15,630 nucleotides of DNA from the IMG/VR virus record IMGVR_UViG_2574180220_000001. One strand, written 5' to 3'. The position numbers and the translations under genes were made by a program. Under the pieces are notes generated by a model. The model was given only the letters and a program-made list of their open reading frames with translations, did not search any database and had not been told where the DNA came from. Source of the DNA: a virus (taxonomy: Duplodnaviria; Heunggongvirae; Uroviricota; Caudoviricetes). Position 1 is the first letter of the stretch. Each line of letters opens with the position of its first letter. Below are positions 3,377 to 15,630 of this stretch, one piece after another.

Positions 3377-4105
3377 TTATAGCTCCTTTAATCGAGGCGG
3401 TTCTGGTAGAGGCATCCAGTGGGTTACACCGCCAATTGGCTCATCGTCGTCGTACTCCAATGCGGCTATATAGAACCCGTCACGACGAGAATAAGAAATC
3501 CCGGACATTACAATGCCATCCGAAACAACAATAATGTCACCCGTTTCTTTCGGCATTCGCTCACTACAGCTTATCCAACCATCCGGAGTCACCGGAAGCG
3601 AGAACGGCAGCACATCTCTGTGAACAAGTTTTTGCTGTGACAGGTTATCCAGAACTTTCTGTACTGCTGCATCACCGAATACACCAAGCGCATCTGCCAT
3701 AACTCCTACAACCTGATAAGCCTCAGCGCATACCGTGGATAAACCATCCGGAATTACCGGAGAGTTACGGTCCTTGCGGTAAATCCGGCATGTACAGGAT
3801 TCATTGTCCTGCTCAAAGTCCATGCCATCAAACTGCTGGTTTTCATTGATGATGCGGGACCAGCCATCAACGCCCACCACCGGAACAATGCCGTTCTGCT
3901 TATCAGGGAAGGCGTAAATTTCTTTCGTCCACGGATTAAGGCCGTACTGGTTGGCGACGATCAGCAATGCGATGAACTGCGCATCGCTGGCATCACCTTT
4001 AAATGCCGTCTGGCGAAGAGTGGTGATCAGTTCCTGTGGGTCGACAGAATCCATGCCGACACGTTCAGCCAGCTTCCCAGCCAGCGTTGCGAGTGCTGTA
4101 CTCAT
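3377..4105 (-). CDS. Chimeric ORF: N-terminal ~115 aa of Bet (Red-beta annealing protein) fused in frame to a non-Bet C-terminus ending in a DUF551-like motif (VTHWMPLPEPP)
   Basis: Residues 1-115 (MSTALATLAGKLAERVGMDSVDPQELITTLRQ...NESCTCRIYRKDRN) match lambda Bet; the sequence then diverges completely (SPVIPDGLSTVCAEAY...GGVTHWMPLPEPPRLKEL). No exo gene lies downstream. Junction near plus coordinate 3760. Confidence 0.8.
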   Translation of the reverse strand: MSTALATLAGKLAERVGMDSVDPQELITTLRQTAFKGDASDAQFIALLIVANQYGLNPWTKEIYAFPDKQNGIVPVVGVDGWSRIINENQQFDGMDFEQDNESCTCRIYRKDRNSPVIPDGLSTVCAEAYQVVGVMADALGVFGDAAVQKVLDNLSQQKLVHRDVLPFSLPVTPDGWISCSERMPKETGDIIVVSDGIVMSGISYSRRDGFYIAALEYDDDEPIGGVTHWMPLPEPPRLKEL

Positions 4106-4110
4106 CCGTT

Positions 4111-4527
4111 TTATACCTCTGAATCAATATCAACCTGGTGGTGAGCAATGGTTTCAACCATGTACCGGATGTGTTCTGCCATGCGCTCCTGAAACTCAAC
4201 ATCGTCATCAAACGCACGGGTAATGGCTTTTTTGCTGGCCCCGTGGCGTTGCAAATGATCGATGCATAGCGATTCAAACAGGTGCTGGGGCAGGCCTTTT
4301 TCCATGTCGTCTGCCAGTTCTGCCTCTTTCTCTTCACGGGCGATCTGCTGGTAGTGACGCGCCCAGCTCTGAGCCTCAAGACGATCCTGAATGTAATAAG
4401 CGTTCATGGCTGAACTCCTGAAATAGCTGTGAAAATATCGTCCGCGAAATGCCGGGCTGATTAGGAAAACAGGGAAGGGGGGTAGTGAATGCTTTTGCTT
4501 GATCTCAGTTTCAGTATTAATATCCAT
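4111..4527 (-). CDS. gam: Gam (RecBCD inhibitor), 138 aa
   Basis: [15 protein letters not shown]...[10 protein letters not shown] matches lambda Gam; internal Met (MNAYYIQ) corresponds to the GamS start. Confidence 0.95.
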
Positions 4528-4625
4528 TTTTTATAAGCGTCGACGGCCTCACGAAACATCTTTTCATCGCCAATAAAAGTGGCGATAGTGAATTTAGTCT
4601 GGATAGCCATAAGTGTTTGATCCAT
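4461..4625 (-). CDS. kil: Kil (FtsZ-targeting host-killing peptide), ~54 aa here
   Basis: [39 protein letters not shown]...; start has an AGGAG Shine-Dalgarno and overlaps cIII by 32 nt and gam by 67 nt. I recall lambda Kil as 47 aa, so the C-terminus may be extended here. Confidence 0.8.
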
Positions 4626-4758
4626 TTTTTGGGACTCCTGGCTGATTAAGTATGTCGATAAGGCGTTTCCATCCGTCACGTAATTTACGGGTGATTCGTT
4701 CAAGTAAAGATTCGGAAGGGCAGCCAGCAACAGGCCACCCTGCAATGGCATATTGCAT
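4594..4758 (-). CDS. cIII: CIII (FtsH/HflB inhibitor), 54 aa
   Basis: Hand-translated [54 protein letters not shown] with AAGGAG Shine-Dalgarno; below the ORF-track size cutoff. Confidence 0.9.
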   Translation of the reverse strand: MQYAIAGWPVAGCPSESLLERITRKLRDGWKRLIDILNQPGVPKNGSNTYGYPD

Positions 4759-4785
4759 GGTGTGCTCCTTATTTATACATAACGA

Positions 4786-4808
4786 AAAACGCCTCGAGTG
4801 AAGCGTTA
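4786..4808 (-). terminator. Weak terminator-like hairpin between ea10 and cIII (short stem followed by U5 on the minus transcript)
   Basis: Seen in sequence: AACGC...GCGTT stem around an XhoI palindrome, then TTTTT on the minus strand. Could correspond to a pL-operon terminator; weak. Confidence 0.3.
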
Positions 4809-4830
4809 TTGGTATGCGGTAACGCCGCGC

Positions 4831-5199
4831 TCAGGCGGCTTTGATAGTCATATCATCTGGATCAAATATTCCTGATGTATCGATATCGGTAATTCTTATT
4901 CCTTCGCTACCATCCATTGGAGGCCATCCTTCCTGACCATTTCCATCATTCCAGTCGAACTCACACACAACACCATATGCATTTAAGTCGCTTGAAATTG
5001 CTATAAGCAGAGCATGTTGCGCCAGCATGATTAATACAGCATTTAATACAGAGCCGTGTTTATTGAGTCGGTATTCAGAGTCTGACCAGAAATTATTAAT
5101 CTGGTGAAGTTTTTCCTCTGTCATTACGTCATGATCGATTTCAATTTCTATTGATGCTTTCCAGTCGTAATCAATGATGTATTTTTTGATGTTTGACAT
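4831..5199 (-). CDS. ea10: Ea10 (lambda Ssb-like protein), 122 aa
   Basis: 122-aa ORF MSNIKKYIIDYDWKASIEIEIDHDVMTEEKL... matching lambda Ea10 in size, sequence and position. Confidence 0.9.
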   Translation of the reverse strand: MSNIKKYIIDYDWKASIEIEIDHDVMTEEKLHQINNFWSDSEYRLNKHGSVLNAVLIMLAQHALLIAISSDLNAYGVVCEFDWNDGNGQEGWPPMDGSEGIRITDIDTSGIFDPDDMTIKAA

Positions 5200-5381
5200 C
5201 TATTCATATCCTCATAGATAAAAAATCGCCCTCACACTGGAGGGCAAAGAAGATTTCCAATAATCAGAACAAGTCGGCTCCTGTTTAGTTACGAGCGACA
5301 TTGCTCCGTGTATTCACTCGTTGGAATGAATACACAGTGCAGTGTTTATTCTGTTATTTATGCCAAAAATAAAGGCCACTA

Positions 5382-5582
5382 TCAGGCAGCTTTGTTGTTC
5401 TGTTTACCAAGTTCTCTGGCAATCATTGCCGTCGTTCGTATTGCCCATTTATCGACATATTTCCCATCATCCATTACAGGAAACATTTCTTCAGGCTTAA
5501 CCATGCATTCCGATTGCAGCTTGCATCCATTGCATCGCTTGAATTGTCCACACCATTGATTTTTATCAATAGTCGTAGTCAT
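5382..5582 (-). CDS. ral: Ral (restriction alleviation protein), 66 aa
   Basis: MTTTIDKNQWCGQFKRCNGCKLQSECMVKPEEMFPVMDDGKYVDKWAIRTTAMIARELGKQNNKAA matches lambda Ral; 183-bp spacing to ea10 as in lambda. Confidence 0.92.
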   Translation of the reverse strand: MTTTIDKNQWCGQFKRCNGCKLQSECMVKPEEMFPVMDDGKYVDKWAIRTTAMIARELGKQNNKAA

Positions 5583-5687
5583 ACGGATAGTCCTGGTATT
5601 GTTCCATCACATCCTGAGGATGCTCTTCGAACTCTTCAAATTCTTCTTCCATGTATCACCTTAAATAGTGGATTGCGGTAGTAAAGA

Positions 5688-5909
5688 TTGTGCATGGCCC
5701 GTCTGAAAAAGAACAACAGCGATTTGCACGATTTATTAGTAGATTATTATATAGTCGGTATGACATTCATGTCACTGGCAGGTAAGCATTGCTGCTCTGA
5801 TGGTTATATCGGGAAAAGGTTACAAAAGGCTGAGGGCATAATTGAAGGGATGTTAATGGCATTAGATATCCGGTTAGAGATGGATATCGTTGTTAATAAC
5901 TCTAATTAA
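5688..5909 (+). pseudogene. 5'-truncated remnant (C-terminal ~71 aa) of an antiterminator Q gene of the phage 82 / DLP12 QuuD type
   Basis: [71 protein letters not shown] resembles the C-terminus of Q82/QuuD as I recall it; frame is closed by a TAA just upstream; lies immediately upstream of the porin and lysis genes, where Q sits in DLP12/PA-2-type phages. Lambda-like sequence ends at about 5693. Confidence 0.55.
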
Positions 5910-5928
5910 TACGCCAATTATTTACTAA

Positions 5929-5960
5929 AAGTTATTAAAAATGGGGCGTTGAAACGCCCC
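5929..5960 (-). terminator. Intrinsic terminator downstream of the porin gene (GGGGCG-UUUCAA-CGCCCC then AUUUUU on the minus transcript)
   Basis: Seen in sequence: 6-bp GC stem followed by a U-tract on the minus strand; the last of four consecutive hairpins 3' of the porin gene. Confidence 0.5.
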
Positions 5961-6097
5961 CAAAAATAAAGGGTAATATATAACAGAAGGTTTATATAGT
6001 TAGAAGCAAGGTTGTGCTTCTAAAGGAAGTGGCTTGAGGGAGCCACTTATATGTTGGGGAGGCAAAGCCTCCCACAACATATCTTTTAGTAATCAAA

Positions 6098-7180
6098 TTA
6101 GAACTGGTAAACCATACCTACAGCAACGATATCATCGGTAGCAACGCCAGATGCTTTCGTGAAATCGCTCTTATCAATCAGGTTGATTTTGTAGTCAACA
6201 AAAGTGGACATATTTTTGTTGAAGTAATAGGTTGCACCTACATCAACATATTCAACCAGGTCCTGATCACCCCAAACACCCAAGTCTTTTCCTTTAGAAT
6301 GCAGGTAAGCAACGGATGGACGCAGGCCGAAGTCGAACTGATATTGTGCAACAGCTTCGAAGTTTTGTGCTTTGTTGGCAATATGGTTATTACCAAAAAC
6401 AGTCATGTTCTGGGTTTCAGAATAGGTGGTAGCCAGATAGATGTTGTTCGCATCATATTTCAGACCAGCTGCCCATACTTCAGCATTTTGACCAGAAGCA
6501 TTCAGACCGTTGTTACCGTAGATAACCTGATTATTAGTGCGATCAGATTTAGCATAGGTTGCACCCACGCCGAATCCTTCATACTCATAAGTAGTTGAGA
6601 AACCGAAACCATCGCCATTAGCTTCAGTTACTTCATTTCGGTCATTTTTGCCCTGATACTGAGCTGCAAAGTTCAGGCCATCAACCAGACCAAAGAAGTC
6701 GTTGTTACGATAAGTTGCAACACCTGTGGTGCGACCAGTCATGAATACATCTGTTTGGGTCCAGGTATCGCCACCGAATTCTGGCAGAACGTCGGTCCAT
6801 GCACCGATGTCGTATGCTACACCGTAGTTACGGCCGTAATCGATGGAGCCGTAGTCACCGAATTTCAGGCCAGCGAAGGCAAGACGGGTTTTATCTTTGG
6901 AGGAACCTTGAGATTCAGCGCGGTTGCCTTTGAATTCATATTCCCACTGACCGAAACCAGTCAGTTGATCGTTGATTTGGGTTTCACCTTTGAAGCCAAG
7001 ACGGGCATAAGTAGTATCACCATCATCTGCATCATTAGAGGAGAAGTAGTGCTTGGCATTAACTTTCCCGTACAGATCCAGCTTGTTACTGTCTTTATTA
7101 TAAATTTCAGCTGCCTGAGCAGACATCGCCATCAGTACTGATGCAGCTACAGCAGAAATTGCCACTGTTAATTTTTTCAT
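6098..7180 (-). CDS. nmpC: OmpC-family general porin, prophage-encoded NmpC/Lc-like, intact (360 aa)
   Basis: Signal peptide [23 protein letters not shown], porin motifs ([57 protein letters not shown]), C-terminal VYQF. Position between Q and the holin matches the lc/nmpC moron of PA-2/DLP12. Confidence 0.85.
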
Positions 7181-7608
7181 CGTGAGCCCTTTTTTTTGAA
7201 CTATTATTAAAAAATGATGTCACTGCGCGATAAATATTCATCTAATCAATGTGATTATTTCAAGATGTAAGTTTTAGTTTCTCGTTTGATTTGTGAAGTA
7301 GATCTCTATTTTTATCTGAACTTTTTTCTATCGAATCCTATTCATGGCTCTTGGCTGAATAAAAATAAATCTATTAGCCAATTTATATTAACGGCTGTTA
7401 TTTATAAGTGCTCTATAATTTGAAGGTTCAATTTAAACCGGCTAAAAATAACACTGGAAATTATTTATTGGTTATTTGTTGAGATTTTCTTATGTATTTG
7501 TAGTGGTGTTTTCAATACTCGGTAGCATTCTCGCAAATATCATTTAGTGGTTTACGTACGTAAAAAATTGGTTATGCTGTTAAGAGTGGTTACTTCGTCA
7601 CACAGCTT

Positions 7609-7641
7609 AAACCCGCCGTCGAGCGGGTTTTTCCATTTTTT
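7609..7641 (+). terminator. Intrinsic terminator upstream of the holin gene, tR'-like (AAACCCGC-CGTCGA-GCGGGTTT then TTCCATTTTTT)
   Basis: Seen in sequence: 8-bp stem and T-rich tract on the plus strand about 130 bp before the holin start. A possible late promoter (TTTACG ... TATGCT, about 7551-7578) precedes it, with low confidence. Confidence 0.5.
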
Positions 7642-7769
7642 GAGTCTCGATATTAGCTGATAACCCAATACCTGAGTTATTCACTGACTCCGAGTCTGTT
7701 ACGTTTCTGCTTTTTTGCGATACGTTGTATTCCCTCAATTTACACCCGCTTTGTCTGCGAGGTGGGGTT

Positions 7770-7985
7770 ATGAAATCCATGGATAAGTTAACAACGGGTG
7801 TCGCCTATGGCACCTCAGCAGGTAGTGCCGGTTACTGGTTTTTACAGCTGCTCGATAAAGTCACGCCCTCACAGTGGGCAGCAATAGGTGTGCTGGGTAG
7901 CCTGGTATTTGGCCTGCTGACGTACCTGACAAACCTTTATTTCAAGATTAAAGAAGATAAGCGCAAGGCTGCGAGAGGTGAATAA
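7770..7985 (+). CDS. S: Class II holin (pinholin), phage 21 S-type, 71 aa with dual-start motif MKSMDK
   Basis: [71 protein letters not shown] resembles S21 / EssD; GGTGGGG Shine-Dalgarno. The track ORF 7725..7985 begins at an upstream start. Confidence 0.85.
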
Positions 7986-8482
7986 TGCCTCCATCATTAC
8001 GAAAAGCCGTTGCTGCTGCTATTGGTGGCGGAGCAATTGCTATAGCATCAGTGTTAATTACTGGCCCAAGTGGTAACGATGGTCTGGAAGGTGTCAGCTA
8101 CGTACCATACAAAGATATCGTTGGCGTATGGACTGTATGTCACGGACACACCGGAAAAGACATCATGCTCGGTAAAACGTATACCAAAGCAGAATGCAAA
8201 GCACTCTTGAATAAAGACCTTGCCACTGTCGCCAGACAAATTAACCCGTACATCAAAGTCGATATACCGGAAACAACGCGCGGCGCTCTTTACTCATTCG
8301 TTTACAACGTGGGTGCTGGCAATTTCAGAACATCGACGCTTCTTCGCAAAATAAACCAGGGCGATATCAAAGGCGCATGTGATCAGCTACGTCGCTGGAC
8401 ATATGCTGGCGGTAAGCAATGGAAAGGTCTCATGACTCGTCGTGAGATTGAGCGTGAAATCTGTTTGTGGGGTCAGCAATGA
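7985..8482 (+). CDS. R: SAR endolysin (T4-lysozyme-like, GH24), phage 21 R-type, 165 aa
   Basis: N-terminal Gly/Ala-rich signal-arrest-release segment ([20 protein letters not shown]), catalytic E-x8-D/C-x5-T region ([23 protein letters not shown]); start overlaps the holin stop. Confidence 0.9.
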
Positions 8483-8940
8483 ACAGAGTAACCGCGATTA
8501 TCTCCGCTCTGGTTATCTGCATCATCGTCTACCTGTCATGGGCTGTTAATCATTACCGTGATAACGCCATTACCTACAAAGCCCAGCGCGACAAAAATGC
8601 CAGAGAACTGAAGCTGGCGAACGCGGCAATTACTGACATGCAGATGCGTCAGCGTGATGTTGCTGCGCTCGATGCAAAATACACGAAGGAGTTAGCTGAT
8701 GCTAAAGCTGAAAATGATGCTCTGCGTGATGATGTTGCCGCTGGTCGTCGTCGGTTGCACATCAAAGCAGTCTGTCAGTCAGTGCGTGAAGCCACCACCG
8801 CCTCCGGCGTGGATAATGCAGCCTCCCCCCGACTGGCAGACACCGCTGAACGGGATTATTTCACCCTCAGAGAGAGGCTGATCACTATGCAAAAACAACT
8901 GGAAGGAACCCAGAAGTATATTAATGAGCAGTGCAGATAG
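8479..8940 (+). CDS. Rz: Rz inner-membrane spanin (i-spanin)
   Basis: [55 protein letters not shown]... matches lambda Rz; ATGA overlap with the R stop. Track lists 8467 as an alternative upstream start. Confidence 0.9.
8699..8881 (+). CDS. Rz1: Rz1 outer-membrane lipoprotein spanin (o-spanin), embedded in the +1 frame of Rz
   Basis: [60 protein letters not shown]; lipobox LVVVGC and proline-rich region; fully nested inside Rz as in lambda. Confidence 0.9.
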
Positions 8941-8971
8941 AGTTGCCCATATCGATGGGCAACTCATGCAA

Positions 8972-9265
8972 TTATTGTGAGCAATACACACGCGCTTCCA
9001 GCGGAGTATAAATGCCTAAAGTAATAAAACCGAGCAATCCATTTACGAATGTTTGCTGGGTTTCTGTTTTAACAACATTTTCTGCGCCGCCACAAATTTT
9101 GGCTGCATCGACAGTTTTCTTCTGCCCAATTCCAGAAACGAAGAAATGATGGGTGATGGTTTCCTTTGGTGCTACTGCTGCCGGTTTGTTTTGAACAGTA
9201 AACGTCTGTTGAGCACATCCTGTAATAAGCAGGGCCAGCGCAGTAGCGAGTAGCATTTTTTTCAT
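8972..9265 (-). CDS. bor: Bor lipoprotein (serum-resistance, Iss-like lysogenic conversion protein), 97 aa
   Basis: MKKMLLATALALLITGCAQQTFTVQNKPAAVAPKETITHHFFVSGIGQKKTVDAAKICGG... matches lambda Bor; lipobox LITGC. Confidence 0.9.
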   Translation of the reverse strand: MKKMLLATALALLITGCAQQTFTVQNKPAAVAPKETITHHFFVSGIGQKKTVDAAKICGGAENVVKTETQQTFVNGLLGFITLGIYTPLEARVYCSQ

Positions 9266-9555
9266 GGTGTTATTCCCGATGCTTTTTGAAGTTCGCAGAA
9301 TCGTATGTGTAGAAAATTAAACAAACCCTAAACAATGAGTTGAAATTTCATATTGTTAATATTTATTAATGTATGTCAGGTGCGATGAATCGTCATTGTA
9401 TTCCCGGATTAACTATGTCCACAGCCCTGACGGGGAACTTCTCTGCGGGAGTGTCCGGGAATAATTAAAAACGATGCACACAGGGTTTAGCGCGTACACG
9501 TATTGCATTATGCCAACGCCCCGGTGCTGACACGGAAGAAACCGGACGTTATGAT

Positions 9556-10089
9556 TTAGCGTGGAAAGATTTGTGTAGTGTTCTGAATGCTCTCAGTAAA
9601 TAGTAATGAATTATCAAAGGTATAGTAATATCTTTTATGTTCATGGATATTTGTAACCCATCGGAAAACTCCTGCTTTAGCAAGATTTTCCCTGTATTGC
9701 TGAAATGTGATTTCTCTTGATTTCAACCTATCATAGGACGTTTCTATAAGATGCGTGTTTCTTGAGAATTTAACATTTACAACCTTTTTAAGTCCTTTTA
9801 TTAACACGGTGTTATCGTTTTCTAACACGATGTGAATATTATCTGTGGCTAGATAGTAAATATAATGTGAGACGTTGTGACGTTTTAGTTCAGAATAAAA
9901 CAATTCACAGTTTAAATCTTTTCGCACTTGATCGAATATTTCTTTAAAAATGGCAACCTGAGCCATTGGTAAAACCTTCCATGTGATACGAGGGCGCGTA
10001 GTTTGCATTATCGTTTTTATCGTTTCAATCTGGTCTGACCTCTTTGTGTTTTGTTGATGATTTATGTCAAATATTAGGAATGTTTTCAC
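9556..10089 (-). CDS. Hypothetical protein at the position of lambda p78, possibly DUF1398 / YbcV-like; function unknown
   Basis: 177-aa ORF; size and spacing to bor and to the next ORF match the lambda right arm. An internal Met ([11 protein letters not shown]...) would give 136 aa, the size I recall for DLP12 YbcV. Family assignment is from memory only. Confidence 0.65.
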
Positions 10090-10251
10090 TTAATAGTATT
10101 GGTTGCGTAACAAAGTGCGGTCCTGCTGGCATTCTGGAGGGAAATACAACCGACAGATGTATGTAAGGCCAACGTGCTCAAATCTTCATACAGAAAGATT
10201 TGAAGTAATATTTTAACCGCTAGATGAAGAGCAAGCGCATGGAGCGACAAA

Positions 10252-10458
10252 ATGAATAAAGAACAATCTGCTGATGATCCCTCCGTGGATCTGATTCGTG
10301 TAAAAAATATGCTTAATAGCACCATTTCTATGAGTTACCCTGATGTTGTAATTGCATGTATAGAACATAAGGTGTCTCTGGAAGCATTCAGAGCAATTGA
10401 GGCAGCGTTGGTGAAGCACGATAATAATATGAAGGATTATTCCCTGGTGGTTGACTGA
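10252..10458 (+). CDS. Hypothetical 68-aa protein at the position of lambda p79 (YbcW-like)
   Basis: [71 protein letters not shown]; 163-bp spacing from the preceding ORF as in lambda. Confidence 0.6.
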
Positions 10459-10622
10459 TCACCATAACTGCTAATCATTCAAACTATTTAGCCTGTGACA
10501 GAGCCAACACGCAGTCTGTCACTGTCAGGAAAGTGGTAAAACTGCAACTCAATTACTGCAATGCCCTCGTAATTAAGTGAATTTACAATATCGTCCTGTT
10601 CGGAGGGAAGAACGCGGGATGT

Positions 10623-10817
10623 TCATTCTTCATCACTTTTAATTGATGTATATGCTCTCTTTTCTGACGTTAGTCTCCGACGGCAGGCTTCAATGACCCA
10701 GGCTGAGAAATTCCCGGACCCTTTTTGCTCAAGAGCGATGTTAATTTGTTCAATCATTTGGTTAGGAAAGCGGATGTTGCGGGTTGTTGTTCTGCGGGTT
10801 CTGTTCTTCGTTGACAT
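10623..10817 (-). CDS. Putative ribbon-helix-helix (Arc/CopG-like) DNA-binding protein, 64 aa
   Basis: MSTKNRTRRTTTRNIRFPNQMIEQINIALEQKGSGNFSAWVIEACRRRLTSEKRAYTSIKSDEE: basic N-terminal tail, beta-strand (RNIRFP), helix, G-x-S-x-N turn, second helix; typical RHH pattern. Lies ~200-400 bp upstream of cos. No strong Shine-Dalgarno. Confidence 0.45.
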   Translation of the reverse strand: MSTKNRTRRTTTRNIRFPNQMIEQINIALEQKGSGNFSAWVIEACRRRLTSEKRAYTSIKSDEE

Positions 10818-11009
10818 GAGGTTGCCCCGTATTCAGTGTCGCTGATTTGTATTGTCTGAAGTTGTTTTTACGTTAAGTTGATGCAGATCAATTAATACGA
10901 TACCTGCGTCATAATTGATTATTTGACGTGGTTTGATGGCGTAGATGCACGTTGTGACATGCAGATGATAATTATTATCATTTTGCGGGTCCTTTCCGGT
11001 GATCCGACA

Positions 11010-11200
11010 GGTTACGGGGCGGCGACCTCGCGGGTTTTCGCTATTTATGAAAATTTTCCGGTTTAAGGCGTTTCCGTTCTTCTTCGTCATAACTTAATGT
11101 TTTTATTTAAAATACCCTCTGAAAAGAAAGGAAGCGACAGGTGCTGAAAGCGAGCTTTTTGGCCTCTGTCGTTTCCTTTCTCTGTTTTTGTCCGTGGAAT
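11010..11200. other. cos region: cosN 12-nt cohesive-end sequence GGGCGGCGACCT at about 11017-11028, followed by cosB up to the nu1 start
   Basis: Seen in sequence: GGGCGGCGACCTCGCGGGTTTTCGCTATTTATGAAAATTTTCCGGTTTAAGGCG... matches the lambda left end / cos junction as I recall it. Confidence 0.85.
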
Positions 11201-11205
11201 GAACA

Positions 11206-11775
11206 ATGGAAGTCAACAAAAAGCAGCTGGCTGACATTTTCGGTGCGAGTATCCGTACCATTCAGAACTGGCAGGAACAGGGAATGCCCGTTCTGCGAGG
11301 CGGTGGCAAGGGTAATGAGGTGCTTTATGACTCTGCCGCCGTCATAAAATGGTATGCCGAAAGGGATGCTGAAATTGAGAACGAAAAGCTGCGCCGGGAG
11401 GTTGAAGAACTGCGGCAGGCCAGCGAGGCAGATCTCCAGCCAGGGACTATTGAGTACGAACGCCATCGACTTACGCGTGCGCAGGCCGACGCACAGGAAC
11501 TGAAGAATGCCAGAGACTCCGCTGAAGTGGTGGAAACCGCATTCTGTACTTTCGTGTTGTCGCGGATCGCAGGTGAAATTGCCAGTATTCTCGACGGGAT
11601 CCCCCTGTCGGTGCAGCGGCGTTTTCCGGAACTGGAAAACCGACATGTTGATTTCCTGAAACGGGATATCATCAAAGCCATGAACAAAGCAGCCGCGCTG
11701 GATGAACTGATAACGGGGCTAAAGCGCAGGCGCTCACTATCAACAAGGATGAGGTTAACTCAACTGTTGATTTAA
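11206..11775 (+). CDS. nu1: Terminase small subunit Nu1 with its C-terminus replaced (first ~170 aa lambda-like, last ~19 aa unrelated)
   Basis: MEVNKKQLADIFGASIRTIQNWQEQGMPVLRGGGKGNEVLYDSAAVIKWY... matches lambda Nu1 up to ...KAMNKAAALDELI, then diverges (TGLKRRRSLSTRMRLTQLLI); no terminase large subunit gene follows. Confidence 0.85.
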   Translation: MEVNKKQLADIFGASIRTIQNWQEQGMPVLRGGGKGNEVLYDSAAVIKWYAERDAEIENEKLRREVEELRQASEADLQPGTIEYERHRLTRAQADAQELKNARDSAEVVETAFCTFVLSRIAGEIASILDGIPLSVQRRFPELENRHVDFLKRDIIKAMNKAAALDELITGLKRRRSLSTRMRLTQLLI

Positions 11776-12428
11776 CTCTTACAAAACAAACAGGGACTGG
11801 AAATCGTTTTGTTTTACAGAACTTAGGTAATACAGAACTATCATTTGCCGCAAAAGTATGGGGATCAAGTGATCGACAAAACGTTTTTGAGGTTGGAACG
11901 TCTGCTGCGTATCTGTTTTATGCGCAAAAAACGTCAGCAGGCCAGTTGTTTGATGTAAATGGCGCTATTAATTGCACAACGCTGAATCAGTCATCAGACC
12001 GCGACCTTAAAGACGATATTCTCGTTATCAGCGACGCGACGAAAGCAATCCGTAAAATGAACGGATACACCTACACGCTCAGGGAAAACGGGATGCCTTA
12101 TGCTGGCGTTATTGCACAGGAAGTAATGGAGGCGATACCAGAAGCTGTGGGATCGTTTACTCATTACGGTGAAGAGTTGCAGGGACCAACGGTTGACGGC
12201 AATGAATTACGTGAAGAAACACGTTATCTGAATGTTGACTACGCCGCCGTGACGGGGTTACTTGTTCAGGTCGCCCGTGAAACAGATGGTCGCGTTACCG
12301 CGCTGGAAGAGGAAAACATAACGCTACGTAAAAATCTGGCAACAGCAGGCACCCGGATCAGCACTCTGGAAAATCAGGTAAGCGAACTGGTTGCACTTGT
12401 CCGGCAGTTAACAGGAAGCGAACATTGA
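11706..12428 (+). pseudogene. C-terminal fragment of a tail fibre / tailspike gene carrying a peptidase S74-type intramolecular chaperone domain; no own start at the junction
   Basis: Frame is open from the nu1 junction; contains the autoproteolysis-type motif SSDRDLKDDI followed by NGYTYTLRENGMPYAGVIAQEVMEAIPEAV and a C-terminal coiled-coil-like segment. Track reports only the Met-initiated part, 11946..12428. Confidence 0.6.
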
Positions 12429-12473
12429 TATCCTTCAAGCCCTGAAGGAGGCTGTTCCCGGTACGTTCAGACT

Positions 12474-12608
12474 GTTGTTGGGCTGGAGATCGCAACGGAG
12501 GAAGAAAACTCGTTGCTGGAAGCCTGGAAAAAGTATCGGGTGTTGCTGAACCGTGTTAATACAACAACTGCACCGGATATTGAATGGCCAGTAGCACCTA
12601 TAGGGTAA
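12474..12608 (+). pseudogene. 3' fragment of a tail-fibre assembly gene (Tfa-like C-terminus), no start codon
   Basis: Hand-translated: ...[41 protein letters not shown], resembling the conserved Tfa C-terminus (lambda Tfa ends ...[26 protein letters not shown]... as I recall); same frame as the preceding ORF, directly after its stop. Confidence 0.6.
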
Positions 12609-12692
12609 ATTCGTAATGATTACCTAAATACGTTATTCTTTTGTTCAAAAAGTGATTTTGCTATAGGTAGGGAGTATGTTCTTGGATTAAGA

Positions 12693-12724
12693 ATAAAAAA
12701 TCGCCATGAAAGAGCTTCATGGCG
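12693..12724 (-). terminator. Hairpin with U-tract on the minus strand (CGCCAUGAA-loop-UUCAUGGCG then AUUUUUU)
   Basis: Seen in sequence: 9-bp stem followed by a T-run on the minus strand, inside the AT-rich non-coding region; no obvious upstream minus-strand gene. Confidence 0.3.
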
Positions 12725-13467
12725 AGTACATAAACGTACAAAATGTGATGAAAGTAGAGTGGCGTAAGCCACTATATTAAGATATGACAATAGCGAAGAA
12801 AAGTAAATAACATTTTATGGACGTTTAATTGTTAATTATAAAAACTAGAGTGCCCGATATTGTTTATCTTGCTTTAAAATAATGTACTCAAACCAAATTT
12901 TTGAGCTAAAAGCTCAAATAATATAAATGCAATGATAATGTTTAATAAGACAATTAGCTTGCTTTGTATTTTCATTTCGGAATACTGTTAAGTAACTTTG
13001 ATGACCCTAACAATAGATCGGAATTTTCTTAGGGTCAATGGTCAATGTTTTTGCTTGCAAAGCAAATGTTTTGGTGGTTATAAGTTGTCTTAATATAGTC
13101 ACGCATGCAACTTGTTCCATGCGGAGATTAAAGATTGGAATATAACGCGAAGATGGAATTAAATTACATTTGCAATAACCAATTTATTATTACTCAATAA
13201 TTACCGATATTATTATTGTAAATTAATCATTAGAGTGCAAAAAGAAATGTAACGGCAAAATAAGAGGACGATAGCTGAGAAAAAAGCGTGCTTTCCCAAT
13301 CTGGGGCAAATCACGTCTGAATGACACCTGAAAACAGGTGGTAGCCTCAAGAAGGCTTGGAATATTCTTCTTTAATGTTATGTAATTCATTGATTTTTCG
13401 TGTACGATTTTAAGACATTTATTCCAAGAAAAATTTTTAACTCTTTGATTTTTCGACTCTGTATCAT

Positions 13468-13529
13468 CGGTCTCGAAAACCGGAGTAGGGGCAACTCTAC
13501 CGGGGGTTCAAATCCCCCTCTCTCCGCCA
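13468..13529 (+). tRNA. Partial tRNA-Ser (CGA anticodon; serU-like) 3' portion only (anticodon arm, variable arm, T-arm, acceptor 3' strand, CCA); 5' part absent
   Basis: GGTCTCGAAAACCGGAGTAGGGGCAACTCTACCGGGGGTTCAAATCCCCCTCTCTCCGCCA matches the 3' two-thirds of E. coli tRNA-Ser(CGA) as I recall it; upstream sequence cannot pair to form the acceptor or D arms. Confidence 0.7.
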
Positions 13530-14104
13530 CTTTATCAATGACTTATCTCCCGACTTCCCGCCTTGCTTTTCCTAAACAGAACAATCGTAGAATATTCTTG
13601 AAGGGTTAGATCGTCACTGTTTTCTGTTCGATACTGTGACATTCAGCACTTGATTCGCTATGGATCTGACAGGAAGGTTTTGAGCGAAAATTTGCAGTTA
13701 TTCAGTTGTTTTCTTATCGGTCACCATTATTCTTTTAGACATTGATCCTACAAAGCTGCCGCAAAGTTGGTGGTGGGAACTGAAGTTGCGTAGAGAAGGG
13801 GTCAATACCCGGAGGCAAACATGGGCTGGCAAAAGTGTAGCGGTATTAGGCGCAGCTATTTAGCCTAGTTATGTTTTATGAAAACTTGATATCATATAAG
13901 TGTCTTACTTATTGGCTGTAAATAAGTTTTTCCTAAGGAATTGTTTCTTGAGTATCATTTGTAACTGTAACGGAATTTATAATCCTTTGCTTTATTGTTA
14001 CGGTATTTTTTATCACACCCTATTTTTTATGTGGTTTTTTATACTGAAGTTTGGCAAAGTGAACTTTATATGCATATACTTCATCCTGGTTTCAGTTAAG
14101 TTGG

Positions 14105-14857
14105 GTGGATGATATGGCAACTACATGTTCAGTTATATTGATTTTGGAGTCCTTTGATGTTTATTTCGGAAAAGAGAGTGTGTTTCTGGAGAGAGGTTCA
14201 TCTGTACTTGTCGACTCTAGCTCTAGAGATTTTTTCCTGACATATCCTGAAAGAGTGATAGTGGCGGATTTTGGCGCTGAGTTTATTAGTCGCTATTTGA
14301 AAGCTAATAACTTAAGGGATATTTCTGATTGTAGGGAATATCCATCTTATTTAAAAATAAACTTTGCTGACTTCAGTTTAATTAAAGGATTAATTAGTTG
14401 GGCTAATCACTGTGCTGAATACATAGAAATTTTTGATGAGTCTATTGCTTTTACATGTCTCTCTGCATTTTCTTCTGAAAAACAATTTGGAGTATTTCTG
14501 TTTGAATGTTTGAAAAGCACAGGGGCTAAAGTTAAAACGATTATTCATACGGATTTATCTGCACCATGGCGTCTTAAGGATATATCATCAAGATTATATC
14601 TCAGCGAAAGTTTACTAAAGAGGAAATTGAAAGAAGAGGGGGTATCATTCAGTAAGATCATACTTGATGAGAGGATGCAAATGGCTGAATATTTACTCAG
14701 CACTCGTTGTTATCCTATTAGTAAAGTAGCTAAGGTCTGTGGTTATGCCAGTGTTTCATACTTTACTTATGTATTTAGACGTTATTTTGGTGTTTCTCCA
14801 AGTCAATACTCTCAGAGCAGTTCAGAAAGTAAAATTCTTACTCACCAGGGAATCTGA
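14105..14857 (+). CDS. AraC/XylS-family transcriptional regulator (YdeO/AppY/GadX-like), 250 aa
   Basis: C-terminal double helix-turn-helix region (PWRLKDISSRLYLSESLLKRKLKEEGVSFSKIILDERMQMAEYLL...VAKVCGYASVSYFTYVFRRYFGVSPSQY) typical of AraC family; AT-rich codon usage consistent with horizontally acquired DNA. Confidence 0.85.
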   Translation: MDDMATTCSVILILESFDVYFGKESVFLERGSSVLVDSSSRDFFLTYPERVIVADFGAEFISRYLKANNLRDISDCREYPSYLKINFADFSLIKGLISWANHCAEYIEIFDESIAFTCLSAFSSEKQFGVFLFECLKSTGAKVKTIIHTDLSAPWRLKDISSRLYLSESLLKRKLKEEGVSFSKIILDERMQMAEYLLSTRCYPISKVAKVCGYASVSYFTYVFRRYFGVSPSQYSQSSSESKILTHQGI

Positions 14858-15351
14858 TCATTGTTCTTGCCCCCTTATTTCCAGACAGGGGGTGTATCTT
14901 AAGTTAACGTTACCCGCTGACGTCGATATTCTCGCGGAGAGCGATAACCCAACGCACTGTGCGGATGGTTTTCATTGTAATGTTCGATCGCCACTGCAAG
15001 ATTATGCAATGCCGTTCTTACATTCGGTTTCGGCATGAACGCGATGTAGTCTTCCTTCATCGTTTTCACGAACCTTTCTGCCATTCCATTACTCTGAGGA
15101 CTGCTGATTGCCGTTGTGCAGGGCTCCAGATTCAACTCTCTGGCGAACTGCCATGTTTCATGCGCTCTATACGCTGAACCGTTATCTGTCAGCCACTGGA
15201 TGGACTGTTCCGGTACTTTATCGCCAAAGCGTTTTTCTATCGCTCCTAACATGACATCCTGCACTGTCGCTTTATCGTAACCTCCCGTGCTTGCGGCCCA
15301 GTCTATGGCTTCACGATCGCAACAGTCCAGGGCGAACGTAACACGCAGTTT
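14858..15351 (-). mobile_element. Truncated IS2-like element (IS3 family): terminal inverted repeat plus the 3' half of orfB
   Basis: Terminal sequence TTGCCCCCTTATTTCCAGACA resembles the IS2 end; minus-strand ORF fragment [24 protein letters not shown]...[50 protein letters not shown]...[14 protein letters not shown] resembles the IS2 OrfB integrase core. The 5' part is cut off at about 15351. Confidence 0.7.
14899..15351 (-). pseudogene. IS3-family (IS2-like) transposase OrfB, C-terminal fragment
   Basis: DDE/rve integrase-core motifs ([25 protein letters not shown]); the frame is open upstream of the reported Met but lacks the N-terminal half. Confidence 0.7.
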
Positions 15352-15630
15352 TGAATCGCCACGGGTTTAACAGACACCTCAGAGTCATTTAAGATGGCTT
15401 AAAGAGAGGTGCCCATGAGCGGTAAGCGTTATCCCGAAGAGTTTAAAACTGAAGCAGTCAAACAGGTTGTTGATCGCGGTTATTCTGTTGCCAGCGTTGC
15501 AACACGTCTCGATATCACCACCCACAGCCTTTATGCCTGGATAAAGAAGTACGGTCCGGATTACTCCACTTTTTCATCAAGCCAATCCGCCCACCACTGC
15601 ATCATTTCTCTGCGCTTATCGAAATACTGA
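15352..15630 (+). mobile_element. Left end of a second IS3-family element (IR beginning TGAATCGCCACGGG) with orfA; continues beyond the window
   Basis: IR-like terminus starting with TGA about 63 bp upstream of an orfA-type ORF; inserted into the IS2-like orfB. Family assignment by general resemblance only. Confidence 0.6.
15415..15630 (+). CDS. IS3-family transposase OrfA (HTH protein), possibly truncated or frameshifted at its C-terminus
   Basis: MSGKRYPEEFKTEAVKQVVDRGYSVASVATRLDITTHSLYAWIKKYGPD... is a typical IS3-family OrfA N-terminus with a helix-turn-helix; ATG at 15415 preceded by AGAGAGG. The tail (YSTFSSSQSAHHCIISLRLSKY) lacks the usual leucine-zipper-like segment. Confidence 0.6.
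   Translation: MSGKRYPEEFKTEAVKQVVDRGYSVASVATRLDITTHSLYAWIKKYGPDYSTFSSSQSAHHCIISLRLSKY

Follow-up and report, generated by a model that had tools for sequence, protein, structure and literature searches.

A deletion joint between nu1 and a side tail fibre gene in a defective lambda-like prophage of E. coli lies at a recurrent breakpoint, lambda 697/698

The window, the whole 15,630-nt stretch of viral DNA that was analysed, is a defective lambda-like prophage located at the lambda attachment site of E. coli, between ybhC and ybhB/bioA. It carries int, xis, a Bet-DUF551 fusion, gam, kil, cIII, ral, a Q fragment and a porin gene, the genes essD-rrrD-rzpD, bor, ybcV, ybcW and ylcI, then cos and a truncated nu1, together with remnants of stf (side tail fibre) and tfa (tail fibre assembly), an AraC-family gene and IS debris. 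The features described here all lie on the plus strand. The 12-nt cohesive end of cosN (GGGCGGCGACCT, an exact string equal to lambda 1-12) was placed at 11017-11028 because lambda 1-703 aligns to window positions 11017-11718 with 99.1% identity. The interval between cosN and the nu1 start (11029-11205) has cosB inside it and shows two differences from lambda, an A>G change at lambda 118 and the loss of one nucleotide at lambda 138. It is followed by a truncated nu1 ORF of 189 aa (11206-11775) whose product matches PF07471 (Phage_Nu1). An initial annotation of this DNA had described the Nu1 N-terminus and cosB as intact, which stands for Nu1, where 168 of the 169 retained residues are identical to lambda Nu1, and has to be qualified for the cos-nu1 interval with its two differences. 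A hybrid repeat derived from nu1 and stf lies at 11707-11718, the 3' remnant of stf at 11713-12428 and a tfa fragment at 12465-12602. The latter corresponds to lambda Tfa residues 147-192 with 74% identity and is annotated as partial in a relative.

Lambda-type cos-nu1 DNA ends at window position 11712, which is lambda 697 (...CTGATA), and stf DNA starts at 11713 (ACGGGGCTAAAG...). The window reads ...GCGCTGGATGAACTGATA/ACGGGGCTAAAGCGCAGG... and the source switches at 11712/11713 (a slash marks the break throughout). Positions 10900-11718 match lambda-type phages at 98-99% and positions 11707-12588 match the side tail fibre gene of phage mEp460 at 98.3%, and the alignment to lambda that the initial annotation had called for departs after lambda 697. 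Both parental sites were found in a near-identical relative, GPEC1054 (locus L002, referred to below as L002), reading CTGATA/CCGGGG in nu1 and CTGTTA/ACGGGG in stf. The proposed joining of nu1 to a tail-fibre gene by deletion within a short homology is supported. The parental sequences are imperfect direct repeats with 10 of 12 positions in common (CTGATACCGGGG in nu1, lambda 692-703, and CTGTTAACGGGG in stf), and the window holds a hybrid copy (CTGATAACGGGG) with its left breakpoint at lambda 697/698. Two bases are informative, A11710 being nu1-type and A11713 stf-type, and the crossover was therefore placed in the shared TA at 11711-11712. A short homology is thus present as had been proposed, but the operative repeat is CTG.TA.CGGGG with the crossover in TA and not the CGGGG originally named. 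The stf site is the sole 10/12 match among 9214 L002 positions downstream of the nu1 site. With both parents identifiable, a short direct repeat, one hybrid copy and no filler, the joint has the form of a microhomology-type junction. The exact joint (residue 169 to stf codon 864) was present in 0 of 5426 complete E. coli genomes, and its exact 189-aa product was found on at least 22 contigs of different assemblies, all draft, at the same locus and with the same neighbours, so the joint is no assembly artefact.

At the joint Nu1 keeps residues 1-169 of 181 (11206-11712), loses 12 codons (residues 170-181, PGLLSEYIEQSG; about 10 had been estimated) and gains 20 residues (TGLKRRRSLSTRMRLTQLLI) that are stf DNA read in the wrong frame up to a stop at 11773-11775, and the new C-terminus is accordingly not that of a natural Nu1 variant. 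The product retains the N-terminal and central regions of the Nu1 family and lacks the complete C-terminus. The stf frame is open from 11706 to 12428 (stop at 12426-12428) and runs one base off the nu1 frame, a TGA at 11703-11705 closes it upstream and the joint supplies no start codon for it. The initial annotation had noted the open tail-fibre frame correctly, but the offset of one base means that there is no translational fusion. It had also placed the joint in the middle of the tail-fibre gene; the entry point is codon 864 of 1101, leaving only the last 238 codons (22%) and deleting the N-terminal domain. This remnant, with a called ORF at 11946-12428, carries Peptidase_S74 (PF13884) and is not a full-length Stf, which combines N-terminal tail attachment with a C-terminal S74 peptidase/chaperone. 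As the nu1 and stf frames differ, the joint is a fusion of DNA and not of proteins. In-frame Nu1 fusions do exist elsewhere, for example a 244-aa Nu1-Lom protein, and would give precedent for an in-frame Nu1-tail fibre chimera with a new function; this reading is refuted here by frames one base apart, the stop after 20 codons and the TGA just upstream.

Consistent with the expectation that no A gene follows and no large terminase lies downstream, no TerL homologue was detected in the window (tblastn, best E = 3.0), leaving a nu1 gene with cosN upstream and the adjoining large terminase gene A missing. Other lambda late proteins were likewise not detectable in the window, save the 46-residue Tfa fragment. 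Lambda TerS is reported to contact TerL via residues 100-181 (PMC6739421). Because the window product lacks the last 12 residues of this region, loss of gpA binding by the truncated Nu1 is plausible, and no gpA is encoded here for it to bind. The initial annotation had the TerL-contacting segment replaced, and the C-terminus is indeed replaced, but only these last 12 of residues 100-181 are gone. Nothing points to a function of the joint itself, suggesting that it has none of its own.

The complete genomes nearest to the window (APEC O78, GPEC1054 and some 20 more) carry near-identical but longer prophages, with 3 SNPs in 14.9 kb. L002 has a complete nu1 (181 aa), a 5' piece of A (1047 bp) that runs into the 3' end of J, then lom and a full-length 3306-bp stf. 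Window 4475-11718 corresponds to L002 8177-15420 and window 11707-15630 to L002 20723-24646. The 12-base overlap of these matches reflects the repeat, CTGATACCGGGG in nu1 and CTGTTAACGGGG in stf, and relative to L002 the window lacks exactly 5314 bp at the joint. Mismatches to L002 number 1 in 7238 on the left flank and 1 in 3918 on the right, with none less than 1.3 kb from the joint. Such near-identical flanks indicate an origin of the joint within this lineage and not by import from a diverged prophage. The early-region deletions differ between the sister lineages (bet-DUF551 in the window, kil-bet in L002), those contigs with the window-type early joint that reach nu1 all have the 189-aa form, and the A'/'J joint is limited to 22 near-identical genomes. 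From these comparisons, the event would have removed 5.3 kb if the common ancestor already carried A'/'J, or about 20 kb if its late region was complete, with the same number of events either way. The deletion of about 20 kb of morphogenesis genes that had been proposed is therefore right as a net difference from lambda but not as the size of the event, since L002-type relatives without A(3')-J(5') differ by 5314 bp. Overall the initial observation was confirmed and its interpretation was partly supported.

A related nu1-stf joint is present at the same chromosomal site in 189 of the 5426 complete genomes, and import of such a joint by homologous recombination was considered as a source. That joint, however, is 9 bp shorter (GATA/AAGCG; GATA/AAGCGCAGG) and its DNA is only 95.7% identical in the flanks, whereas each flank in the window shows a single mismatch to the undeleted relative and neither contains a divergent patch, making import extremely improbable and effectively refuted. 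The shorter joint either was formed independently or reflects a secondary TA...TA loss within another allele of stf. Taken alone, the window joint is a case of ordinary prophage decay at att-lambda.

The left breakpoint was found repeatedly in other prophages. Using nu1 plus 1047 nt of A as query, truncated matches ended at nt 507, 507, 509 and 512 and continued into tail-fibre, TipJ and portal partners, the exception being the K-12 DLP12 class, which ends at nt 828. At the DNA level, the joints to stf, J, lom and two portal positions share a break at lambda 695-698. The nu1-J joint, in a Qin prophage of an STEC strain, reads GATA/ACGGGGCGCAC, the nu1-lom joint encodes the in-frame 244-aa protein, which is annotated as Ail/Lom family, and the nu1-portal joints lie at two distinct portal positions. 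Among the best 120 protein cluster representatives the Nu1 match ends at residue 169 in 45, as compared to at most 6 at each neighbouring residue, with the representatives being partly allelic copies and so not all independent events. About 25 different continuations follow residue 169 (including Tfa, the Z/U region, capsid E, FI, portal, Lom, J, V, I, integrase and the host transporter YdfJ), in a set that, being clustered at 90%, conceals short tails and is biased towards long in-frame ones.

Exact-pattern scans, using the left arm followed by any base except the native C, yielded 24 different right-hand DNA sequences among metagenomic and viral contigs; two doubtful matches in the genome-contig scan (a Myxococcales MAG and an Erwinia contig) were left out. 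The union of sequences joined at lambda 697 comes to about 59, located in Qin, att-lambda and other prophages, and the deletions at these joints span 9 bp, 54 bp and up to more than 20 kb, some running past the prophage end. Control scans of the same viral collection at lambda 657, 667, 677, 687, 707 and 717 gave 0, 0, 1, 0, 0 and 0 true joints as compared to 11 at 697 (seven matches at 717 were a T>C allele and were not counted as joints). With one joint at six control positions against 11, the hotspot is not caused by query design. These data show that lambda 697/698 in nu1 is a nucleotide-precise recurrent deletion hotspot that was used in many independent events at several chromosomal sites. 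As some nu1 joints are probably secondary derivatives, the primary events are probably fewer than 59.

Recurrence of the breakpoint could not be seen by the initial annotation, which worked from the sequence alone. We found no published account of the nu1 site or hotspot in the searchable literature on nohA/nohD, prophage decay hotspots and lambda deletion endpoints.

The sites joined to nu1 have features in common. A native TA stood right before the joint in 16 of 22 partners and then in 7 of 9 further partners, against a background of 3% of dinucleotides in the lambda late region; the right sides were mapped to lambda, mEp460 or L002 and not to each joint's true parent, so some of the TA and motif assignments could be in error. 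Matches to the nu1 site were enriched at -6 C, -4 G, +2 C and +4 G and not at -5, -3 and +3, giving the partner consensus C.G.TA.C.G, symmetric around TA. The motif positions were retested on later-found sites because they had first been chosen post hoc. Six later-found independent partners, a sample of six sites only, matched at 16 of 24 even positions as compared to 7.6 expected (P = 4e-4) and at 5 of 18 odd positions as compared to 4.9 expected. In every joint the -3 base came from nu1 and the +1 base from the partner.

These patterns bear on whether the joints are plain microhomology-mediated deletions made by slippage or end joining, with the recurrence at 697 due to chance matches, stepwise collapse and sampling bias. 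The window joint uses the best available 10/12 repeat, and it resembles microhomology-mediated deletion in E. coli in its short imperfect direct repeats, single hybrid copy and lack of inserted bases. E. coli illegitimate recombination resembles resection-initiated microhomology-mediated end joining, the general scheme being resection followed by annealing of short homologies (PMC11372144). In addition, CAG, CTGAG and TT joints occur in the same remnants and secondary derivation of nu1 joints is documented. We nevertheless consider this explanation doubtful. The left endpoint is fixed across about 59 joints rather than being set by contiguous homology with no fixed site, one site has dozens of partners, and the six control positions in nu1 yielded a single joint. 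The similarity falls at alternating positions symmetrically on both sides of the TA and is not contiguous with the junction. The crossover was always confined to the TA, whereas single-strand annealing of imperfect repeats would put the partner base at -3 in roughly every second event. No joint had it, and this led us to reject single-strand annealing as a candidate. Lambda gene H holds a 9-nt perfect match to the nu1 site (at 11494), the best contiguous homology, which was never seen as a partner, and this argues against homology as the driver. Moreover, nu1 joints sharing only 0-1 nt with their partner still have their break at 697.

A 2-bp shared dinucleotide with symmetric flanks (TA in C.G.TA.C.G) is what site-specific recombination by a dimeric enzyme with a 2-bp stagger would be expected to leave, and resolvase/invertase genes lie downstream of tfa in some such prophages. 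A conventional site-specific recombinase, for example a Pin-type serine invertase near the tail-fibre genes, or an IS-mediated adjacent deletion is nonetheless unlikely. Although the TA core is symmetric, no inversions were found among about 17 informative joints, with the downstream DNA colinear with lambda. Reciprocal half-joints (a non-native ...TA followed by CCGGGGTTGCTG) numbered 0 in IMG/VR, a test of limited power as it covered one collection and only sites with a non-A base at -3. There is no recombinase gene near the joint in the window and, to our knowledge, the nu1 site is unlike the Hin/Gin/Cin/Pin crossover sites, which was counted against a serine recombinase. There was no IS element at the fixed endpoint and no IS, other element or extra DNA at any joint examined. 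IS30 was also considered by itself, as it makes 2-bp target duplications and has a palindromic hotspot, but the IS would stay at the joint and its hotspot in lambda lies at 33244-33498 and not in nu1 (PMC9333248).

Several other candidates were examined and rejected. DNA secondary structure at the site was unremarkable (fold of lambda 640-780, z = 0.11 as compared to shuffles). A Chi-dependent RecBCD end was rejected on inspection, the nearest octamer (GCTGGATG, lambda 682-689) having two mismatches and lying 8 nt off. Terminase cutting at a pseudo-cosN was suggested by the resemblance of cosN (TTACG/GGGC) to the stf and J partners (TAACGGGGC), but on inspection the nick is offset by 3 nt. A secondary site for lambda Int (CTGATAC as compared to TTTATAC) predicts exchange at the overlap borders and not in TA, and the hotspot is also found in prophages with different integrases. 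The 4-bp stagger of gyrase or topo IV (G/NTAN/C) needs the partner -3 base or the nu1 +1 base, and the window joint has neither. CRISPR-Cas3 self-targeting (PAM ATG, 687-689) was set aside on reasoning only, as its polarity is leftward and its starts are not nucleotide-precise.

Joints away from nu1 often had similar sequences at their breaks. The A'/'J joint of L002 reads GGGGATA/ACCGAATCC, with the parents A1758 GGGATA/CGGG and J17971 AAGATA/ACCG, and its kil-bet joint breaks at bet GTTAA/CCGG. In heavily eroded remnants B3501 GGATA/CCCC is joined to C5295. Further joints link J16139 GCTA/CCCG to J17063 GATA/AGCC and E6595 GGATA/T to stf21849 GTTA/T. Ordinary microhomology joints (CAG, CTGAG, TT) are also present in the remnants. 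Four contigs (L048, L026, P0028 and L030) have the same right sides as non-nu1 joints also joined to nu1, which indicates that the GATA of nu1 can recombine with the GATA of an older downstream joint. Such recombination explains both the partners without a native TA and why the leftmost family member is the final boundary. In this family of GNTA/ sites, the nu1 site would then lie furthest to the left and be used most often, and successive deletions would collapse onto it through the GATA of older downstream joints.

Alternatively, selection on the product could shape the breakpoint, cos and Nu1(1-169) being kept as a decoy that poisons packaging of an incoming lambda-like phage while the last 12 residues would be harmful without gpA. 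The Nu1(1-169) ORF is intact, 168/169 lambda-identical and kept in many remnants, and left-retaining products are far more numerous than right-retaining ones. TerS contacts TerL via 100-181, and the Rpp proteins of cos-type PICIs, TerS-derived proteins that act in packaging interference, block phage by pairing with the TerS N-terminal domain (PMC6739421). By analogy, the window product has a Nu1-type N-terminal DNA-binding domain, is encoded outside a functional phage and could pair with phage TerS. Rpp proteins, however, are diverged, dedicated satellite proteins, while the window product is Nu1 minus 12 residues in a dead prophage. A protein boundary cannot give a tenfold peak at residue 169 over 168 and 170 and cannot account for the partner TA and flanking motif, and K-12 NohD is full length while NohA keeps 176 residues. 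We therefore regard shaping of the breakpoint by selection as improbable.

The closest known arrangements are nohA (Qin) and nohD (DLP12) of E. coli K-12, where cos and a lambda-type nu1 likewise persist in a prophage without morphogenesis genes, and the nu1 copies of the relatives are annotated in RefSeq as nohD or nohA 'DNA-packaging protein'. Like the window product, K-12 NohA has 189 aa and ends in a nonsense tail that stems from tail-fibre DNA. Unlike the window, nohA breaks 21 nt further into nu1 (...GAATATA/ACCGCG, residue 176), and nohD has kept its full length, with an A fragment behind it that meets tfa at nt 828. The window joint is at att-lambda whereas nohA and nohD are at the Qin and DLP12 sites.

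Deletions anchored at the cognate site of an enzyme, with look-alike sites as partners, are known for P1 Cin invertase quasi-sites and for the origin nick of M13 and pC194. The nu1 joints resemble these in having one nucleotide-precise fixed endpoint, variable look-alike second endpoints and a shared central dinucleotide. They differ in that no inversions or circles were recovered at nu1, and the analogy serves as a lead only. We know of no enzyme, cognate site function or origin at lambda 697.

Together these data are best explained by a deletion scar in a defective prophage, a recurrent hotspot in nu1 and a TA-confined, sequence-selective mode of deletion that we infer from the joints, an explanation to which we assign a probability of about 0.8. 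The prophage was already defective before this deletion, which took place within this E. coli lineage. The nu1 site CTGATA/CCGGGG became joined to the look-alike stf site CTGTTA/ACGGGG by a crossover in the shared TA, with no insertion and with loss of the intervening DNA, leaving cos, an ORF of an intact-looking Nu1(1-169) plus 20 nonsense residues and a 3' stf fragment. The putative mechanism is sequence-selective, deletion-only breakage and rejoining with a 2-bp TA crossover at sites that fit C.G.TA.C.G. This could be carried out by an enzyme cutting with a 2-bp stagger at C.G.TA.C.G sites, or it could come from a fixed 3' end (...GATA-3') that, once proofread, primes again at look-alike sites.

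A broader proposal can be made more tentatively, and we think it possible though rather less than even. A family of GNTA/NCNG sites, with nu1 as its dominant and leftmost member, may be acted on by a putative sequence-selective, deletion-only activity that breaks and rejoins DNA with its crossover restricted to a 2-bp TA. Prophage erosion would then be enzyme-driven and site-directed and not random decay, and this activity would be a main route by which E. coli strips lambdoid prophages of their morphogenesis genes, leaving cos and Nu1(1-169).

The single joint in the window changes nothing by itself and its recurrence is the point of interest. If one nucleotide of nu1 truly is the starting point of dozens of independent deletions whose partners carry the symmetric TA motif, the erosion of lambdoid prophages would be partly directed by an undescribed DNA transaction. 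If true, this would bear on how defective prophages form and on the commonness of cos-nu1 remnants of the nohA/nohD type in E. coli, on the origin of annotated chimeras such as Nu1-Lom, and on the mechanisms of short-homology recombination in vivo.

At the lambda attachment site, the locus shared with the window, 189 complete E. coli genomes have nu1 joined to stf at GAACTGATA/AAGCGCAGG (slashes mark joints throughout), a joint that is 9 bp shorter than that of the window and that lies at 6790-6830 in NZ_CP189449.1 (L001). The remnant carrying this joint is far more eroded than the window, the sequences flanking the joint share 95.7% identity with the window, and the genes at the joint are annotated as nohD and a 'tail fiber domain-containing protein'. 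Joining of the same tail-fibre sequence at different positions was seen with ACCGCGCTGACAGACAATACGC, which follows nohA of K-12 at ...GAATATA/ (L004, a K-12-type Qin prophage, 3550-3620) and in a human gut metagenome contig (L029) comes after ...CTGATA/ instead, with the break 21 nt further upstream. ATA precedes the joint in both.

nu1 was also joined to genes other than those for tail fibres. In NZ_CP036202.1 (L013, 2067-2801) and in proteins P0015, P0031-P0035, P0055 and others, Nu1 residues 1-169 run in frame into the C-terminal part of Lom to give a fusion of 244 aa, for which public records use the name 'Ail/Lom family outer membrane beta-barrel protein'. Within lom, 55 bp hold three different joints to Nu1. 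A Qin prophage (L018, GCA_053257695.1 contig JBNDCH010000105.1, 10001-12000) carries residues 1-169 of nohA in frame with the C-terminal 116 residues of a tyrosine integrase. Next come alpA and a gene with a TIR domain (CAP12-PCTIR), and the 3' part of J lies beyond these two genes. This arrangement looks like a defence-island fragment sitting in the late region.

Two metagenome contigs (L037 and L024) carry 'Swiss-cheese' remnants 9 kb downstream of nu1, with at least five internal deletions each. L037 keeps A 491-641, W, B 1-222, C 293-403, G, H 1-48 and two pieces of J, and several of the internal joints in these remnants are GNTA/ joints.

Within nu1, breakpoints also form minor secondary clusters, one at residues 140-144 (lambda about 610-622) and one at residue 165 (lambda about 685). 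E144 (...CCGGAACTGGAA/) and L165 are each followed by three distinct joints. Like the main hotspot (GAACTGATA/), the residue-144 site has GAACTG with 3 nt after it. In IMG/VR contigs (L056-L062) an alternative large-terminase allele starts right after the nu1 stop, at GGTTAA/GGGATTACAGC..., and this boundary of nu1 with A is a natural mosaic boundary distinct from the deletion hotspot. The exact 21-mer GCCGCGCTGGATGAACTGATA was also present, with a non-lambda continuation, in a Myxococcales MAG (L053) and an Erwinia sp. contig (L054). Contamination, a genuine homologue of Nu1 and a chance match are all possible sources.

Elsewhere in the window, an intact porin gene of 360 aa (6098-7180, minus strand), annotated as ompC in relatives, is flanked by the lysis genes on one side and the Q fragment on the other, and occupies the position of nmpC in DLP12. 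The interval from the tail-fibre remnants to ybhB holds an AraC-family regulator gene (14105-14857), placed where DLP12 has appY, and IS3-family transposase gene fragments (14860-15400).

In the early region a 3' fragment of an antiterminator Q (quuD-like) gene follows directly after ral (interval from ral to the Q fragment, about 5300-5560), and therefore everything from N to Q, comprising the immunity, replication and nin functions, is absent. This joint is common to the window and its APEC O78-type relatives. A second deletion joint links a 5' portion of the RecT-family gene bet with a gene that contains DUF551, producing a 242-aa ORF (3377-4105, minus strand, joint 3766/3767) with the crossover at TT (...GAGTT/ACGG...). 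The sister lineage (L002) has a kil/bet joint instead (...GTTAA/GGGG), of which the left parent reads GTTAA/CCGGAG. Decay was independent in the two lineages.
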